From: Escherichia phage vB_EcoP-101117UKE2
Sequence record: MZ234019.1
DNA length: 44,526 nucleotides
Reading direction: 5' to 3' (one strand)
Notes under the pieces: generated by a model
The model's input: the letters and a program-made list of their open reading frames with translations, nothing else
What the model was told of the DNA's origin: nothing
The model's database searches: none
Program-made: the position numbers and the translations under genes
Part shown: one piece after another, positions 1 to 44,526 of the stretch
Layout of the letters: each line of letters starts with the position of its first letter
Position numbering within the stretch: the stretch's first letter is position 1

Positions 1-924
1 ATGACTACTGAAAACACCCTCCTGTCTGTTCGTGAAGCTGCAACCGCTGAGATCAAGCAACACTTAGACAATATCGGCACTTCTTACATCAAAGTTGGCG
101 CTTGTCTTAATGAGTTACGCGGTGACTTTGAAGGTCAAAAAGACTTTTTGGCTTATGTAGAATCAGAATTTGGAATCAAGAAAGCACAATGTTACAAGCT
201 GATGAGCGTAGCCCGTGTCTTTGAAGGCGATGATCGCTTTAAAGGCGTGGCGATGCGTGTAATGCTGGCACTTGTTCCTTTCGCTGATGAAAATATCATC
301 ATGGAGAAAGCCGCAGAACTTGCCGCAGCGGGCAAGCTGGACACTAATGCCGTAAATGCCCTGATTGATCCTAAGAAAGAGACAAAGGCCGAGACGGTAC
401 AATCTAAGGCTGAGGCGGTAAAACCGCAGGAGAATGCGACTGAGGCCGCAGAAACTATGCAAGGACATGCGACCTTTGAGGATTTCATCTTAGAGAAGGC
501 GAAAGAGGAATTACAAAGTGTGCCGCCAGTAAGTGAGTCGGGTAACGACGAATCCTCACCGTGGGAAGATGAAAGCAAGCCGGAAGCGCCAAAGGCCGCG
601 CCACTGGATAACACGGCTAACACGGAGAACGCCGCTATGTCTGGCCTACTGGCACAAATTAAGGCACTGACTGAGCAATTACAGGCAGCTAACGACCGCA
701 TCGCCGCCCTAACCAGTGCACGGGAAAGTAAGAAAGCGGCTGCGCCTATGCTTCCGCAGTTTAAATCCTCTTGCTTCTACGCTCGCTTAGGCTTGAGCGC
801 CGAGGAAGCAACGAAGAAAACAGCAGTGAATAAGGCACGCCGTGAACTGGTTAAACTAGGGTATGGTGAAGGTCATGAGGCATGGCCTTTGATCTCTGAG
901 GCAGTAGAAGAATTAACTAAGTAA
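1..924 (+). CDS. hypothetical early protein, last gene before RNAP (307 aa; globular N-terminal domain, acidic Ala/Glu/Pro-rich linker with coiled-coil, basic C-terminus)
   Basis: ATG at position 1; if the window is circularly joined, AAAGGTG at the window end sits 6 nt upstream as RBS; function not recognisable. Confidence 0.6.
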   Translation: MTTENTLLSVREAATAEIKQHLDNIGTSYIKVGACLNELRGDFEGQKDFLAYVESEFGIKKAQCYKLMSVARVFEGDDRFKGVAMRVMLALVPFADENIIMEKAAELAAAGKLDTNAVNALIDPKKETKAETVQSKAEAVKPQENATEAAETMQGHATFEDFILEKAKEELQSVPPVSESGNDESSPWEDESKPEAPKAAPLDNTANTENAAMSGLLAQIKALTEQLQAANDRIAALTSARESKKAAAPMLPQFKSSCFYARLGLSAEEATKKTAVNKARRELVKLGYGEGHEAWPLISEAVEELTK

Positions 925-987
925 CCTTATCGGTGGCATCTTCTTAGGTGTCACCTATTAAGGTTTCTTTCACTAGGAGTAAACAAG

Positions 988-3615
988 ATGCAAGATCTAC
1001 ACGCTATTCAGCTTCAGCTTGAGGAAGAAATGTTTAACGGCGGTATTCGTCGCTTTGAAGCAGACCAACAACGCCAGATTGCATCAGGTAATGAATCCGA
1101 TACGGCATGGAATCGTCGCCTGTTGTCGGAGCTTATCGCACCTATGGCGGAAGGTATTCAGGCTTATAAGGAAGCCTACGAAGGCAAGAAAGGACGCGCA
1201 CCGCGTGCACTGGCCTTCATTAACTGCGTAGAGAACGAAGTGGCAGCATATATCACGATGAAGATCGTAATGGATATGCTTAACACGGATGTAACCTTGC
1301 AAGCCATAGCAATGAATGTAGCTGATCGCATCGAAGATCAAGTACGCTTCAGCAAGCTGGAAGGCCACGCCGCCAAATACTTTGAAAAAGTTAAGAAGTC
1401 ACTCAAGGCAAGTAAGACTAAATCATATCGCCATGCGCACAACGTAGCGGTAGTGGCTGAGAAGTCAGTAGCTGACCGTGACACTGATTTCTCCCGCTGG
1501 GAGGCGTGGCCTAAAGATACCTTACTGCAAATCGGTATGACCTTGCTAGAAATACTGGAGAATAGCGTATTCTTCAATGGTCAACCTGTCTTCCTCCGCA
1601 CCTTGCGCACTAATGGTGGCAAGCATGGTGTTTACTACTTACAGACCAGTGAGCACGTAGGGGAGTGGATTACAGCATTTAAAGAACATGTAGCGCAACT
1701 TAGTCCGGCCTATGCACCTTGCGTCATTCCTCCGCGCCCTTGGGTGTCCCCTTTTAATGGTGGGTTTCATACTGAGAAGGTGGCAAGTCGCATCCGTTTG
1801 GTAAAAGGCAACCGTGAGCACGTCCGTAAGCTGACCAAAAAGCAAATGCCAGCAGTTTATAAGGCTGTTAATGCTTTACAGGCCACTAAGTGGCAAGTTA
1901 ACAAAGAAGTTTTGCAGGTAGTAGAAGACGTTATCCGTCTCGACCTTGGTTATGGTGTACCTTCCTTTAAACCACTCATCGACCGCGAGAACAAGCCGGC
2001 TAACCCAGTGCCGTTAGAATTTCAACACTTGCGAGGCCGCGAACTGAAGGAAATGTTAACGCCGGAACAATGGCAAGCCTTCATCAACTGGAAAGGTGAA
2101 TGCACCAAGCTGTATACCGCTGAGACTAAGCGCGGAAGTAAGTCGGCGGCAACCGTTCGCATGGTAGGACAAGCGCGCAAATACAGCCAGTTTGATGCGA
2201 TTTATTTCGTGTATGCACTGGATAGCCGCTCACGCGTTTATGCGCAATCTAGCACACTCTCACCGCAATCAAACGACCTAGGCAAGGCGTTACTGCGTTT
2301 TACCGAAGGGCAGCCGCTAAATAGCTCTGAGGCGCTTAAATGGTTTTTGGTGAACGGGGCGAATAACTGGGGTTGGGATAAGAAGACTTTCGACGTGCGC
2401 ACCGCTAACGTACTGGACGGCGAGTTTCAAGATATGTGCCGCGACATTGCAGCGGATCCTCTGACCTTTACTCAATGGGTAAATGCCGATTCACCTTATG
2501 GATTCCTTGCATGGTGCTTTGAGTATGCTCGTTATTTGGATGCACTGGATGAAGGAACACAAGATCAGTTTGTGACGCATTTACCTGTTCATCAAGATGG
2601 TAGCTGTTCTGGCATCCAGCACTACAGTGCTATGCTACGCGACGAAGTGGGTGCGAAGGCGGTAAACCTTAAACCATCCGACTCGCCTCAAGATATTTAT
2701 GGAGCGGTTGCGCAGGTTGTTATCCAGAAGAACTACGCCTACATGAATGCAGATGATACAGAAACTTTCACATCTGGAAGCGTAACACTTACAGGTGCAG
2801 AACTGCGTAGCATGGCTAGTGCATGGGATATGATAGGTATCACTCGCGGCTTAACCAAAAAGCCGGTAATGACCTTGCCTTACGGATCCACACGCTTAAC
2901 CTGCCGTGAGTCAGTGATTGATTATATCGTTGATTTGGAAGAAAAAGAGGCACAAAGGGCTATTGCAGAAGGGCGGACGGCTAATCCGGTGCACCCTTTT
3001 GACAATGACCGGAAAGACTATTTAACACCGGGTGCAGCTTACAACTATATGACGGCGTTAATTTGGCCTTCTATCTCTGAGGTTGTTAAAGCCCCTATAG
3101 TGGCAATGAAAATGATTCGCCAGCTTGCACGTTTCGCAGCTAAAAGGGATGAAGGATTAGAATACACCTTGCCAACTGGCTTCATCCTGCAACAAAAGAT
3201 AATGGCTACCGATATGCTTCGTGTATCCACTTGCTTGATGGGTGAAATCAAGATGAGTCTACAAATTGAAACGGATGTAGTGGATGAAACGGCAATGATG
3301 GGCGCTGCCGCTCCTAACTTTGTTCACGGTCACGATGCTAGTCACCTTATATTAACGGTATGTGACCTAGTGGATAAAGGTATTACCTCCATTGCAGTTA
3401 TCCATGACTCTTTCGGTACTCATGCAGGCCGCACCGCAGACCTGCGGGATAGCTTAAGGGCAGAAATGGTGAAGATGTATCAAGGCCGTAACGCTTTACA
3501 ACAATTGCTTGATGAGCATGAAGAGCGTTGGCTAGTAGATACTGGCATCCAAGTGCCAGAGCAAGGGGAGTTTAACCTTGAAGAGATATTAGTTTCTGAC
3601 TATTGCTTCGCATAA
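988..3615 (+). CDS. single-subunit DNA-dependent RNA polymerase, SP6 type (875 aa)
   Basis: Near-full-length similarity to recalled SP6 RNAP sequence ([32 protein letters not shown]..., [22 protein letters not shown]); AGGAG RBS. Confidence 0.97.
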
Positions 3616-3706: not shown

Positions 3707-3729
3707 ATTTACCGGACACTATAGGAGAG
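3707..3729 (+). promoter_or_regulatory. phage RNAP promoter ATTTACCGGACACTATAGGAGAG
   Basis: Match to SP6-type promoter core GACACTATAG; part of the genome-wide consensus here. Confidence 0.8.
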
Positions 3730-41865: not shown

Positions 41866-42015
41866 ATGCCGTTAATCAAATCGGTTAAGCAAAGTGCTGT
41901 ACGCCAGAACACAGAAGAACTTATTCAATCAGGACGTGACCCTAAGCAGGCCTATGCCATTGCCAAGGATGTACAGCGTCGTGCCATGAAGAAACCTTCT
42001 GCATCTTCTGCGTAA
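41866..42015 (+). CDS. small basic hypothetical protein (49 aa), last gene before genome end
   Basis: ATG with AAGGAGG RBS. Confidence 0.35.
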   Translation: MPLIKSVKQSAVRQNTEELIQSGRDPKQAYAIAKDVQRRAMKKPSASSA

Positions 42016-42127
42016 GCAGGTTAATATCTTAGTGTACACAAGGGCAGACTTAGGTTTGCTCTTAGTGTATTCACAAGGATGATCACAAAGTAACCAAGTC
42101 AAAATTTTGATGTAGGCGTGTGTCAGC

Positions 42128-42300
42128 TCTCTCGCCCTCGCCCTCGCCGGGTTGTCCCCATAGGGTGGCCTGAGGGAATCCGTCTTCGACGGGCAGGGCT
42201 GATGTACTCCTTGTACTAGCTTAGTAGTACACAAGGGCTGGCCTTTTGTTTTGCCGTGTACTAGCAAGGTGGAACGCTGGAGAGCGCCTAGGACGGCCTA
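42128..42300. other. probable physical genome terminus and terminal-repeat region
   Basis: TCTCTCGCCCTCGCCCTCGCCGGGTTGTCCCCATAGGGTGG resembles the recalled T7 left-end sequence; lies between last late gene and early promoters. Confidence 0.5.
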
Positions 42301-42386
42301 GGGATGGGCTTAGTGGTGGACAAGGTGATTGCCTTAGTGAAGCCGCTTAGTGCATTCCTGAGGCCATTCAGGGCGTTTATGAGGTA

Positions 42387-42416
42387 TTGACAGGGTGGGC
42401 GGGCGTGGGCTATCTG
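42387..42416 (+). promoter_or_regulatory. candidate host sigma70 early promoter
   Basis: -35 TTGACA at 42387; weak -10 TATCTG after 18-bp GC-rich spacer. Confidence 0.3.
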
Positions 42417-42790
42417 TTCGTTTCGCTAACGCTCCACTCACAAGCCTGACGTGTACCTTAGTTATTACCTTAGGTTATTCCTTGATGGATAGCTTAGGTT
42501 AACCTGAGTGGATTACCTTAGTTAAAGCCTTAGTGCTTAGCTTAGTATCAGCTTAGTAGTGTACCTTAGTCAGACTTAGTGTCTTCTCTTAGTGATTGCA
42601 CATGCAAGCATGTAAGATGCCATTAGGTCGCGGTCGGTAGACCGCTAAGAAGAAATAATAGTAATAAGATGCAGTAGGAGGAACACCAGAAACCTGGCCA
42701 ACCTAGCCTATCCTAGCTCTGTATCTATTGCTTTTCCTTAGTCTAACACGTTAGACAACCTATCTTATTCTTAGTGATGGTAACTTAGTG

Positions 42791-42820
42791 TTGACAAGAT
42801 AATCTTAGTGTAATACTATG
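42791..42820 (+). promoter_or_regulatory. candidate host sigma70 early promoter
   Basis: -35 TTGACA at 42791, 17-bp spacer, -10 TACTAT. Confidence 0.5.
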
Positions 42821-42962
42821 CATCACGTAGGCGGTGCTGAGGCACCTAGTAGCCAGCTAGTAAGGCATACGAAGAGACTAGTGCCTACATTGTTCTTTAA
42901 CAATTTGCTTAGTGTAACCTATGTATGCCGTGGTTAATTACTTATTGAATGAGGGATTAACT

Positions 42963-43142
42963 ATGACATTAAACAACCGTGAACTGTCCGTTCTCTTCAC
43001 TATGTTGTGCTACATGATTCGTAACAACGAATTACTTACAGACGATGAGTTAGCCTTGTATCACCGCTTTCTTAACGAAGGTTGGACTGATACAGTTAAT
43101 CAATACCGTAACATGATAGATGAGTTGAGGGAGGGTAAATAA
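42963..43142 (+). CDS. early hypothetical protein (59 aa)
   Basis: ATG 42963 with GAGGG RBS (track start 42921 lacks RBS); stop overlaps next start (TAATG). Confidence 0.55.
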   Translation: MTLNNRELSVLFTMLCYMIRNNELLTDDELALYHRFLNEGWTDTVNQYRNMIDELREGK

Positions 43143-43366
43143 TGTATCAACATGAGGTATTCTTTGAATCAGCTAGCGAAGCTATTCGCTTCCGTGATGA
43201 TATGATGCAAGCTGGTGTAGGCGTTGATGTGTATCACTATTTGATAGATTACGACACTGAATATCACCGAGTTACCTTAGTATCTGAGTATGACAACCAA
43301 GTCATTACTGAGTATCTAGGTAGTGAAGATTATGATTACGATGAAGTAATCACGACAAATCTCTAA
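43142..43366 (+). CDS. early, strongly acidic protein (74 aa); candidate DNA-mimic or anti-defence protein
   Basis: GAGGG RBS; Asp/Glu/Tyr-rich composition; leading-end position next to ocr. Confidence 0.6.
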   Translation: MYQHEVFFESASEAIRFRDDMMQAGVGVDVYHYLIDYDTEYHRVTLVSEYDNQVITEYLGSEDYDYDEVITTNL

Positions 43367-43374
43367 ATTAACTA

Positions 43375-43404
43375 TTGACAGCCACGGCATACAAGGTTAC
43401 ATTA
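43375..43404 (+). promoter_or_regulatory. candidate host sigma70 promoter
   Basis: -35 TTGACA at 43375, 17-bp spacer, -10 TACATT. Confidence 0.4.
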
Positions 43405-43480
43405 AGCACATAGCCGATAGGCAACGCTCTTTAACAATCTGGTTTGTGTCTTGATAGGCTAACTAACTAAGGTAATTATT

Positions 43481-43591
43481 ATGAAAGGTTTAATTTGTGT
43501 AGAACGTATGGTCAATGGTAAACTTGAAATATTACCACTGGAAAACCAATCTAGCTTCAAAGAGTGGTATGGCTGTTTCTCACTGATTTAA
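43481..43591 (+). CDS. small hypothetical protein (36 aa)
   Basis: ATG preceded by AACTAACTAAGG; weak support. Confidence 0.25.
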   Translation: MKGLICVERMVNGKLEILPLENQSSFKEWYGCFSLI

Positions 43592-43742
43592 GGTAAAGGC
43601 TGGCACTAGTCAGCCTATCAAGGCGCAAACCAAGCTCTTTAACAATTTGGATGGTAGCTTCTTAGTCTGGATAGGTTAAACCTAGGAGATTCTCTTGAGT
43701 CTCCTATAATGTAACCTAACTAACTAAATGAGGATTAATAAC

Positions 43743-44096
43743 ATGGCTATGTCTAATATGACTTACTCTCAGGTTTACAACACCGCTCATGCTGCATTAG
43801 TTGAACGTATCTGGAATGATGCTATTGATTGTATCGATAACGCACATGATGCAATCCATGAGGTAGCGGACAGTGCTGTACCAATCTATTATGCTGACAT
43901 CTTCTCAGTGATGGCGAGTGAAGGTATTGATCACTTCTTCGAAGACTCCGGCCTGATGCCAGATACTAAGGATGTAACGGTCGTACTACAAGCCCGTATC
44001 TATGAACAACTCACCATTGATTTATGGGAACGTGTTCAAGATATGATTGTTGCGTACACCACTTACGCTGATTATTCAGAAGAAGAGGAAGAATAA
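43743..44096 (+). CDS. ocr: Ocr-like anti-restriction DNA-mimic protein (117 aa)
   Basis: MAMSNMTY start and [52 protein letters not shown] match recalled T7 gp0.3; acidic C-terminus; GAGG RBS. Confidence 0.9.
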
Positions 44097-44098
44097 GG

Positions 44099-44212
44099 AT
44101 GGAAAAGCAATATAACTTTATCTTTTCAGACGGTGTGACCCTGAAGTGTTCCCTGCGTTTCGCGCAGATTCGCGAGGAAGTGCTAGGAACTACATACAAA
44201 CTATTTAGCTGA
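44099..44212 (+). CDS. small hypothetical protein (37 aa)
   Basis: ATG just after ocr stop; overlaps downstream promoter; weak. Confidence 0.25.
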   Translation: MEKQYNFIFSDGVTLKCSLRFAQIREEVLGTTYKLFS

Positions 44213-44225
44213 CACTATAAGAGAG
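44203..44225 (+). promoter_or_regulatory. phage RNAP promoter variant ATTTAGCTGACACTATAAGAGAG
   Basis: SP6-consensus-like upstream half; altered initiation region TATAAGAG. Confidence 0.55.
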
Positions 44226-44285
44226 GGTTTAACAGGGCGCTCTTGCGAGAGTGCCCGATTAAATCAACTTAACGAGATATTAAAT

Positions 44286-44462
44286 ATGAAATACATACTG
44301 ATTGCTATGTTTTCTGGCTTCATTGGCTATGCTGGTGCTTCTTATGACAACTACAGAAGTAAGCAATTGGCTGCTGAAAAGTGGGATAAAACCTATTTTG
44401 CTTGTATGAAACAAGGTAATTTGATGCAAGATTGCATACTTAAAGCGCGCAGCGAAGAGTGA
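44286..44462 (+). CDS. small protein with signal-peptide-like N-terminus (58 aa)
   Basis: MKYILIAMFSGFIGYAGA hydrophobic N-terminus, two Cys; weak RBS. Confidence 0.4.
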   Translation: MKYILIAMFSGFIGYAGASYDNYRSKQLAAEKWDKTYFACMKQGNLMQDCILKARSEE

Positions 44463-44526
44463 TGAGCCTATAGCCTACTTAAGTGGGCTATGTGAACACC
44501 ATTCATTAACTCAAAAGGTGACTATT

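Follow-up and report, generated by a model that had tools for sequence, protein, structure and literature searches.

The early region of Escherichia phage vB_EcoP-101117UKE2 (MZ234019.1) carries three copies of a short motif that we consider likely to be boxA elements of the ribosomal RNA (rrn) operon type, set in the leader and the intercistronic spacers of an early operon transcribed by the host RNA polymerase (RNAP) and accompanied there by helices of the RNase III type. The stretch of DNA analysed here (44,526 bp, hereafter the window) is identical in sequence to Escherichia phage vB_EcoP-101118B1 (MZ234020.1), which belongs to Vectrevirus (Autographiviridae, Molineuxvirinae) and is a relative of K1-5, K1E and SP6. 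The record is permuted: the left end of the genome and the early region lie at ~42000-44526, and the early region resumes at window position 1 with a 307-amino acid (aa) open reading frame (ORF) followed by the RNA polymerase gene (988-3615).

The motif, CTCTTTAACAATYTGG, is found without mismatches at 43427-43442 and 43635-43650 and with two mismatches at 42893-42908 (TTCTTTAACAATTTGC), always on the + strand. Only 0.06 copies are expected by chance and none of 100 shuffles reached three, which bears out the occurrences listed at about 42893, 43427 and 43635 in the initial annotation. Read from one base earlier, all three copies match GYTCTTTAANA exactly, and the window contains no further match on either strand. 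This is the gamma-proteobacterial BoxA consensus, for which Baniulyte et al. (PMC5725501) used the rrn and suhB sites of E. coli. We refer to the copies as boxA1 (GTTCTTTAACA, 42892-42902, a perfect consensus match with the extended motif running to 42908), boxA2 (GCTCTTTAACA, 43426-43436, extended to 43442) and boxA3 (GCTCTTTAACA again, 43634-43644, extended to 43650). The spacing of 45-100 nt to the next start codon that had been proposed is approximately right, the measured values being ~70, 54 and 108 nt: boxA1 lies 60-70 nt from the ATG at 42963, boxA2 45-54 nt from the ATG at 43481 and boxA3 108 nt from the ATG of ocr at 43743 (93 nt from the annotated ATG at 43728).

Resemblance to the rrn elements extends beyond the core. 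The leader boxA of E. coli rrnB (GCTCTTTAACAATTT, in the context cactGCTCTTTAACAATTTatcag) shares a 15-nt identity with copy 3, and the boxA of the rrnB 16S-23S spacer (GCTCTTTAAAAATCTGG) indicates that the 'AATCTGG' extension of the motif is rrn-like too. In T7, nt 813-829 read gacGCTCTTTAACAATCTGGtaa, between promoter A3 (750) and gene 0.3 (925), and the 16-mer CTCTTTAACAATCTGG (nt 814-829) is identical to copy 2; boxA3 is the positional counterpart of this T7 element. Shadrin et al. (PMC3709561), citing Savalia et al. 2010, state that Gp2 becomes dispensable when the boxA anti-termination element of T7 is mutated. Judged by its sequence, the motif is a single-stranded rrn-type boxA, that is, a predicted loading site for NusB/NusE, and not an RNase III site. 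As such it is an already known element, functional in T7, and its recognition here is ordinary annotation absent from the public record.

What surrounds the boxAs is more elaborate. When SP6, K1-5 and relatives from IMG/VR were compared, the flanks of successive boxAs proved complementary to one another across the intervening genes. The first helix (H1) joins a 5′ strand that begins 3 nt past boxA1 (TGCTTAGTGTAACCTATGTATGCCGTGGTT, 42906-42935, + strand) to a 3′ strand that ends 17 nt 5′ of boxA2 (AGCCACGGCATACAAGGTTACATTAAGCA, 43380-43408, + strand); in this phage it forms 29 pairs of a 30-pair model with one bulged A, and it encloses two small early ORFs (42963-43366, + strand) of 59 aa (42963-43142) and 74 aa (43142-43366). 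The second (H2) joins a 5′ strand beginning 3 nt past boxA2 (TGGTTTGTGTCTTGATAGGCT, 43440-43460, + strand) to a 3′ strand ending 1 nt 5′ of boxA3 (AGCCTATCAAGGCGCAAACCA, 43612-43632, + strand), with 21 pairs and a core of -36.9 kcal/mol, and encloses a 36-aa cargo ORF (43481-43591, + strand). The two strands of a helix are separated by 152-445 nt. Duplex energies of -48.0 (H1) and -42.6 kcal/mol compare with a genome null of -27.5 +/- 4.6, obtained from 200 random 40-mers of this genome, each with its best partner within 1.6 kb. A gapless search for inverted repeats lists H2 as the longest of the whole genome; H1, with its 1-nt bulge and its G.U pairs, is missing from that list and was assessed with RNAduplex. 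Both helices exceed the ~17-bp length named for the 16S leader-trailer helix.

Covariation supports both pairings. Across 24 distinct sequences, 97.5% of the cells of H1 are standard pairs; sliding the 3′ strand by 1-3 columns lowers this to 24-40%. Of the 30 pairs, 14 have changed on both sides, and the observed values were reached in 0 of 500 shuffles. In the 15 sequences aligned for H2, 98.1% of cells are paired and slid controls reach 24-46%; double-sided changes affect seven of the 21 pairs, and again no shuffle out of 500 reached the covariation score. Over both helices, G.U outnumbers A.C by 65 to 9, which points to pairing of + strand RNA and not to a symmetry at the DNA level. The analysis shows the sequence identity of the motif with boxA and the positions of the elements, and likewise that H1 and H2 exist, that they covary and that their wobble pairs are strand-asymmetric. 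A small conserved hairpin, GGCTGGC-ACTA-GTCAGCC (43598-43615, + strand), abuts and overlaps the inner end of the H2 3′ strand and covaries as well (compensatory changes in 2 of 7 pairs; 90.5% paired). An Rfam scan of 42000-44526 at E <= 1 returned a single chance match to a snoRNA.

The third unit differs in that its helix is local. H3 (43658-43733, + strand; -30.6 kcal/mol, z = -3.9) is a bipartite hairpin, built of a lower stem, then internal loops, then an upper stem of 10 bp; it begins 13 nt past boxA3 and ends at the ribosome-binding site of ocr. Its lower stem is conserved in relatives, and the upper stem varies in sequence yet stays paired in per-sequence folds, with arms that include GGAGAUUC/GAGUCUCC, GGGUAUUC/GAGUACCC and AGCUAUCUUGGC/GCUAGGGUAGCU. 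RNAalifold on a MAFFT alignment of H3 gave a weak consensus only (-4.4 kcal/mol), the variable upper stems being misaligned. For the boxA before ocr, as for the T7 boxA, long-range partners are at background only (-23 to -30 kcal/mol), and a local hairpin is found instead.

H1, H2 and H3 are all present in both the minimum free energy (MFE) and the centroid structure of the 935-nt transcript from the putative promoter P1 (42826-43760; z = -6.6). All three boxAs are located in linkers that separate these strong helices, and boxA2 is wholly unpaired in both structures, within an unpaired 31-nt linker. Copy 3 had been placed within an imperfect two-stem hairpin, and the isolated 74-nt segment 43609-43682 does fold in this way (MFE of -18.0 kcal/mol). 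Neither the MFE nor the centroid structure of the whole transcript contains this hairpin, because both of its arms have much stronger partners elsewhere: it pairs the H2 3′ strand with the H3 5′ arm, at -18.0 against -36.9 (H2) and -30.6 kcal/mol (H3). It would also be kinetically disfavoured, its 3′ arm being made when the H2 partner is already present. We therefore rejected it as the main structure, being weaker than H2 and H3 and unused in the full-transcript fold.

The same layout recurs in relatives. For every boxA of 16 relatives and of T7, we searched the next 1.6 kb for the best duplex partner of the adjoining 45 nt on its 3′ side; the relatives comprised Vectrevirus, Zindervirus, Klebsiella Molineuxvirinae, Tuodvirus phD2B, Acadevirus BigMira, Przondovirus K30, Phimunavirus PhiM1 and an Edwardsiella phage. 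In all 16, each boxA that has a long-range partner is followed, after a 3-nt gap, by a helix segment of 20-30 nt, whose partner (-35 to -53 kcal/mol) lies 160-950 nt downstream and ends 0-28 nt before any further boxA. Comparison of the H2-type frame of the window (43440-43632) with loci L124, L143, L151, L152, L153, L155 and L156 showed that the frame itself (boxA, 5′ strand, UAACUAACUAAGG-type ribosome-binding region, small hairpin, 3′ strand) is near-identical across Molineuxvirinae, a Przondovirus, a Phimunavirus and an Edwardsiella phage. The cargo is not: the window, K30/mutPK1A2, SP6, phD2B, Kp_H01, PhiM1 and the Edwardsiella phage carry unrelated ORFs of 36-69 aa in it. In distant phages, DNA similarity to the window is limited to ~60 nt of flank. 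The whole H2 unit is absent from the close relatives L129, L132, L140, CrRp3 and NIC06P3, with the junction exactly at boxA. The boxA direct repeats may thus double as recombination joints, which is compatible with a function in RNA.

Consensus matches place the boxA cluster in the stretch that the host polymerase is expected to read. A strong sigma-70 promoter-like site, P1 (TTGACA-17-TACTAT, 10 of 12 consensus matches; 42791-42819, + strand), precedes boxA1 by ~70 nt and is presumed to be the start of host-RNAP early transcription. The first SP6-type phage-RNAP promoter 3′ of the left end (TAGCTGACACTATAAGAG, 44206-44223, + strand) is expected to mark the end of the stretch read by host RNAP only. 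All three boxA copies lie between the two, upstream of the latter, and therefore in RNA expected from host RNAP only. A second sigma-70 promoter-like site, P2 (TTGACA-17-TACATT, 10 of 12 matches; 43375-43403, + strand), overlaps the H1 3′ strand, and its elements TTGACA and TACAYT are kept in the alignment of relatives. Shortly before boxA2, the 5′ ends that RNase III would leave on read-through RNA would resemble those of transcripts initiated at P2. A divergent minus-strand promoter was considered as the cause of the symmetry of H1 and rejected, since the reverse complement of the 5′ strand, inspected by eye, has no proper -35 element or spacing.

A close parallel to this arrangement is found in the rrn operons themselves. 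In rrnB, the segment that adjoins the leader boxA on its 3′ side (AUUUAUCAGACAAUCUGUGUGGGCACUCGAAG...) and the 16S trailer (...CUUUGUAGUGCUCACACAGAUUGUCUGAUAGAA) form a duplex of -57.9 kcal/mol, and the sequence after the spacer boxA (AUCUGGAUCAAGCUGAAAAU) complements, more weakly (-30.5 kcal/mol), a segment past 23S. According to Warner et al. (PMC10250234), leader-trailer helices are cleaved by RNase III, 30S subunits cannot form without a helix longer than 17 bp, and boxA is both required and enough for assembly of the rrn transcription antitermination complex (rrnTAC). RNase III processing is boosted by rrnTAC. Phage and rrn operons thus share the same boxA core followed at once by a 5′ strand, with the 3′ strand beyond the product and then a second boxA, and the helix starts within ~1 nt of the rrnB boxA versus 3 nt after the phage boxA 11-mer. 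They differ in that the phage encloses short translated mRNAs (152-445 nt) and the rrn operons structural rRNAs of 1.5-2.9 kb; the phage also has no clearly established boxB or boxC, and its H1 3′ strand doubles as a promoter-like site. The phage helices are an analogue of the rrn leader-trailer helices and not a member of that class, since the enclosed ORFs code for protein and the cargo is unrelated between phages.

Like the copies in the window, the T7 boxA lies 3′ of host-type early promoters, and the order boxA, bipartite hairpin, gene 0.3 repeats that of boxA3, H3 and ocr. T7 nonetheless has one motif copy in 300-3300 (from annotated gene 0.3 to the start of gene 1, a part of the record that carries no RNase III annotation) and a local hairpin only, its best long-range partner being at background (-29.8 kcal/mol), whereas two of the three copies in the phage studied here are tied to long-range helices around ORFs. 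The T7 RNase III sites R0.3, R0.5 and R1 fall, we assume, within 300-3300, and if so a single copy there means that the motif is no general part of RNase III sites. RNase III sites of T7 (R0.3, R0.5, R1, R1.1, R1.3) are local hairpins. Like the structures described here, they are intercistronic and stand in a polycistronic early transcript made by host RNAP, and their order of lower stem, internal loop and upper stem is also seen in H3 and in a hairpin at 44221-44270. These two fit the bipartite intercistronic layout of T7-type RNase III sites and the motif itself does not, nor is the motif part of a local irregular hairpin of ~20 bp or more; H1 and H2 differ from such sites in being bimolecular-type duplexes that span cistrons, and the boxA motif lies outside the RNase III structure. 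The hairpin at 44221-44270 (-25.1 kcal/mol, z = -4.6), which has no boxA, directly follows the first SP6-type promoter and is a candidate for a T7-style RNase III site or for a 5′ stabiliser of the first phage-RNAP transcript.

In phage lambda, boxA departs from the rrn consensus and works only with the phage N protein bound at boxB. The boxAs described here match the full rrn consensus instead. We identified no N-like gene and no conserved hairpin of the boxB kind, so that the system would depend on host factors alone, like those of rrn and T7. Loading of NusB/NusE by boxA on a phage early transcript is itself known from the lambda nut sites (PMC10250234).

Put together, these features suggest the following course of events. 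Host RNAP would start at P1, and possibly also at P2, as their consensus matches suggest. Sequence identity and T7 genetics suggest that the nascent boxA would bind NusB-NusE(S10) and, with NusA, NusG and SuhB, convert the polymerase into a fast, Rho-resistant form; such elongation would cover the early untranslated stretches of 114 to ~150 nt. As proposed for rRNA, the boxA-bound Nus complex may keep the 5′ strand tethered close to the RNA exit channel until synthesis of the 3′ strand. Host RNase III most likely would then cut H1, H2 and H3, which would free each cistron, or pair of cistrons, as a separate mRNA whose ends are base-paired, and would also detach the boxA linkers. Their length of 21-30 bp and their rrn-like placement relative to boxA make the helices plausible substrates. 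Of the link to RNase III that had been proposed for the motif, the part concerning the motif itself is wrong, the motif being boxA; for the adjacent helices, two of the three long-range, it is plausibly right.

Three other explanations can be set against rrn-type boxAs with RNase III-type helices. According to the one closest to the initial annotation, the motif forms part of T7-style local RNase III hairpins between early cistrons. The motifs do sit in intercistronic spacers, the T7 motif stands directly 5′ of the hairpin that precedes gene 0.3, and the isolated segment around copy 3 folds as described, at -18.0 kcal/mol. Folding of the region around copy 2 shows no significant local structure, however (z = +0.69), the signal at copy 1 is weak (z = -1.65), and the arms of the copy-3 hairpin have stronger, covarying partners in H2 and H3, so that the full-transcript fold bypasses it. 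The hairpin at 44221-44270 lacks the motif, T7 300-3300 has a single copy of it, and the motif matches a single-stranded element bound by protein. We regard this explanation as very unlikely. It is also unlikely that the boxAs and inverted repeats serve mainly as DNA-level boundaries between recombining early cassettes, with RNA pairing incidental. Near-identical H2-type flanks around unrelated cargo ORFs in different phages, subfamilies that resemble one another in only ~60 nt of flank, and the presence or absence of the H2 cassette among close relatives with a junction exactly at boxA would all be accounted for. Recombination, however, needs direct repeats, yet the complementarity has survived 14 and 7 double-sided changes, and the ratio of G.U to A.C (65 to 9) fits pairing of + strand RNA. 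The direct repeat is moreover precisely the host boxA consensus, with a genetic phenotype in T7, and the two roles are not exclusive.

It is likewise unlikely that the main effect of the boxAs is not antitermination but Nus-dependent repression of the following gene, at the level of translation or transcription, as at E. coli suhB, with the helices giving only stability or insulation and no RNase III taking part. Paired 5′ and 3′ ends could shield mRNAs uncleaved, and only 45-54 nt separate boxA2 from the ATG at 43481; a boxA less than ~50 nt from the start codon represses suhB via the Nus complex, and such sites are widespread (PMC5725501). Against this, boxA1 and boxA3 are 60-108 nt from their start codons, and the orthologous T7 boxA is genetically antiterminating in the account given by Shadrin et al. 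(PMC3709561). The helices, at 21-30 bp, are also within the length range of RNase III for leader-trailer helices.

Several points nevertheless weigh against a set of rrn-type boxAs with RNase III-type helices. The enclosed RNAs are translated mRNAs and not structural RNAs such as those bracketed in rrn, and for this phage we infer Nus binding, Rho resistance and RNase III cleavage. Near-perfect duplexes can carry base pairs that are antideterminants for RNase III. Part of the conservation of the H1 3′ strand could reflect promoter function, given the P2 site upon it, and a recombination role of boxA at cassette junctions could add to the conservation at the DNA level. In the predicted fold, finally, boxA1 and boxA3 are partly engaged in weak local stems of 5-6 bp.

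Annotation of the early stretch in MZ234020.1 consists of 'hypothetical protein' coding sequences (CDSs) and Ocr only, and three of its entries can be reconsidered. The CDS at 42818-42937 runs over both boxA1 and the 5′ strand of H1 and is probably spurious. The following CDS (annotated as 42921-43142) probably starts at the ATG at 42963, preceded by the ribosome-binding site GAGGG, and not at 42921. For ocr, the gp0.3 homologue (43743-44096, + strand), the true start is probably 43743, which gives MAMSNM as in T7, and not 43728 as in the record. The left end is also rich in CTTAGTG: 12 of the 19 genomic copies are on the + strand within 42028-42914 (the 0.9-kb left end), with 7.5 expected genome-wide; the last left-end copy is inside the H1 5′ strand and another is in the P1 spacer. 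These repeats resemble the short repeated sequences of the T7 left end.

Other IMG/VR contigs also carry boxAs in comparable settings. In L096 (- strand, 401-1366) and L013 (2973-3911), 3-4 copies of the boxA consensus occur within ~1 kb, an indication that multi-boxA early regions are not confined to SP6-like phages. Each boxA of L096 is just 3′ of a TTGACA...TATAAT promoter-like site and, although this contig is unrelated, the 3′ strand of a boxA-linked helix there overlaps TTGACA-N17-TATAAT, as P2 overlaps H1. A common layout is shared by the lambdoid-prophage-like contigs L025 (- strand, boxA at 3709), L049 (+ strand, 6426) and L043 (- strand, 4094) and by ~40 similar IMG/VR loci: an S24/CI-like repressor ORF, a hairpin (AAAAAAGCGCCCTACAGGACGCTT), a boxA (GCTCTTTAACAATCTGG) and then ATATCC..CAAC. 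A conserved GTTGGGGATATCCAGATT located 515-660 nt downstream complements the boxA-adjacent sequence at -30 to -40 kcal/mol, and in L025 there is no convincing ORF between boxA and this distal complement. An Rfam scan of three other boxA-bearing loci at the gathering threshold gave no matches. The lambdoid-like loci suggest that the fusion of boxA to a long-range helix may be more general.

In the open-access literature we found nothing that joins boxA with SP6, K1-5, Autographiviridae or Podoviridae, the original SP6 and K1-5 genome papers being outside its scope, and nothing on RNase III in connection with SP6-like phages. The two GenBank records of SP6 carry no annotation of boxA or RNase III features. 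As far as could be determined from the accessible literature, the architecture of boxA combined with a leader-trailer cassette is new relative to the scheme known from rrn and T7. What is less usual is that rrn-consensus boxAs occur repeatedly and that each is joined to a covarying long-range helix around early ORFs, the frames being kept while the cargo is swapped.

A wider interpretation, possible but held with rather less than even confidence, is that the early regions of SP6/K1-5-like phages, and cassettes that have spread to other Autographiviridae, are chains of miniature 'pre-rRNA-like' units with interchangeable ORF cargo. In these the rrn complex would load at every boxA and give fast, Rho-resistant elongation, its tethering of the 5′ strand would let the leader-trailer helix form during transcription, and RNase III would excise every cistron, all within a portable, host-factor-only frame copied from ribosomal operons. 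Should the proposed model be confirmed, phages would copy for their mRNAs the whole boxA/leader-trailer/RNase III logic of ribosomal operons, beyond the antitermination signal. Early genes with long untranslated spacers would then have an explanation for their escape from Rho, and the exchange of units would show how small anti-defence genes (ocr and neighbouring cassettes) pass between phage subfamilies. The chaperoning of long-range RNA pairing by the Nus complex through looping, a question currently studied on rRNA, would gain a small and tractable system, with loops of 150-450 nt in place of 1.5-2.9 kb, and phage engineering would be offered natural insulated expression cassettes.

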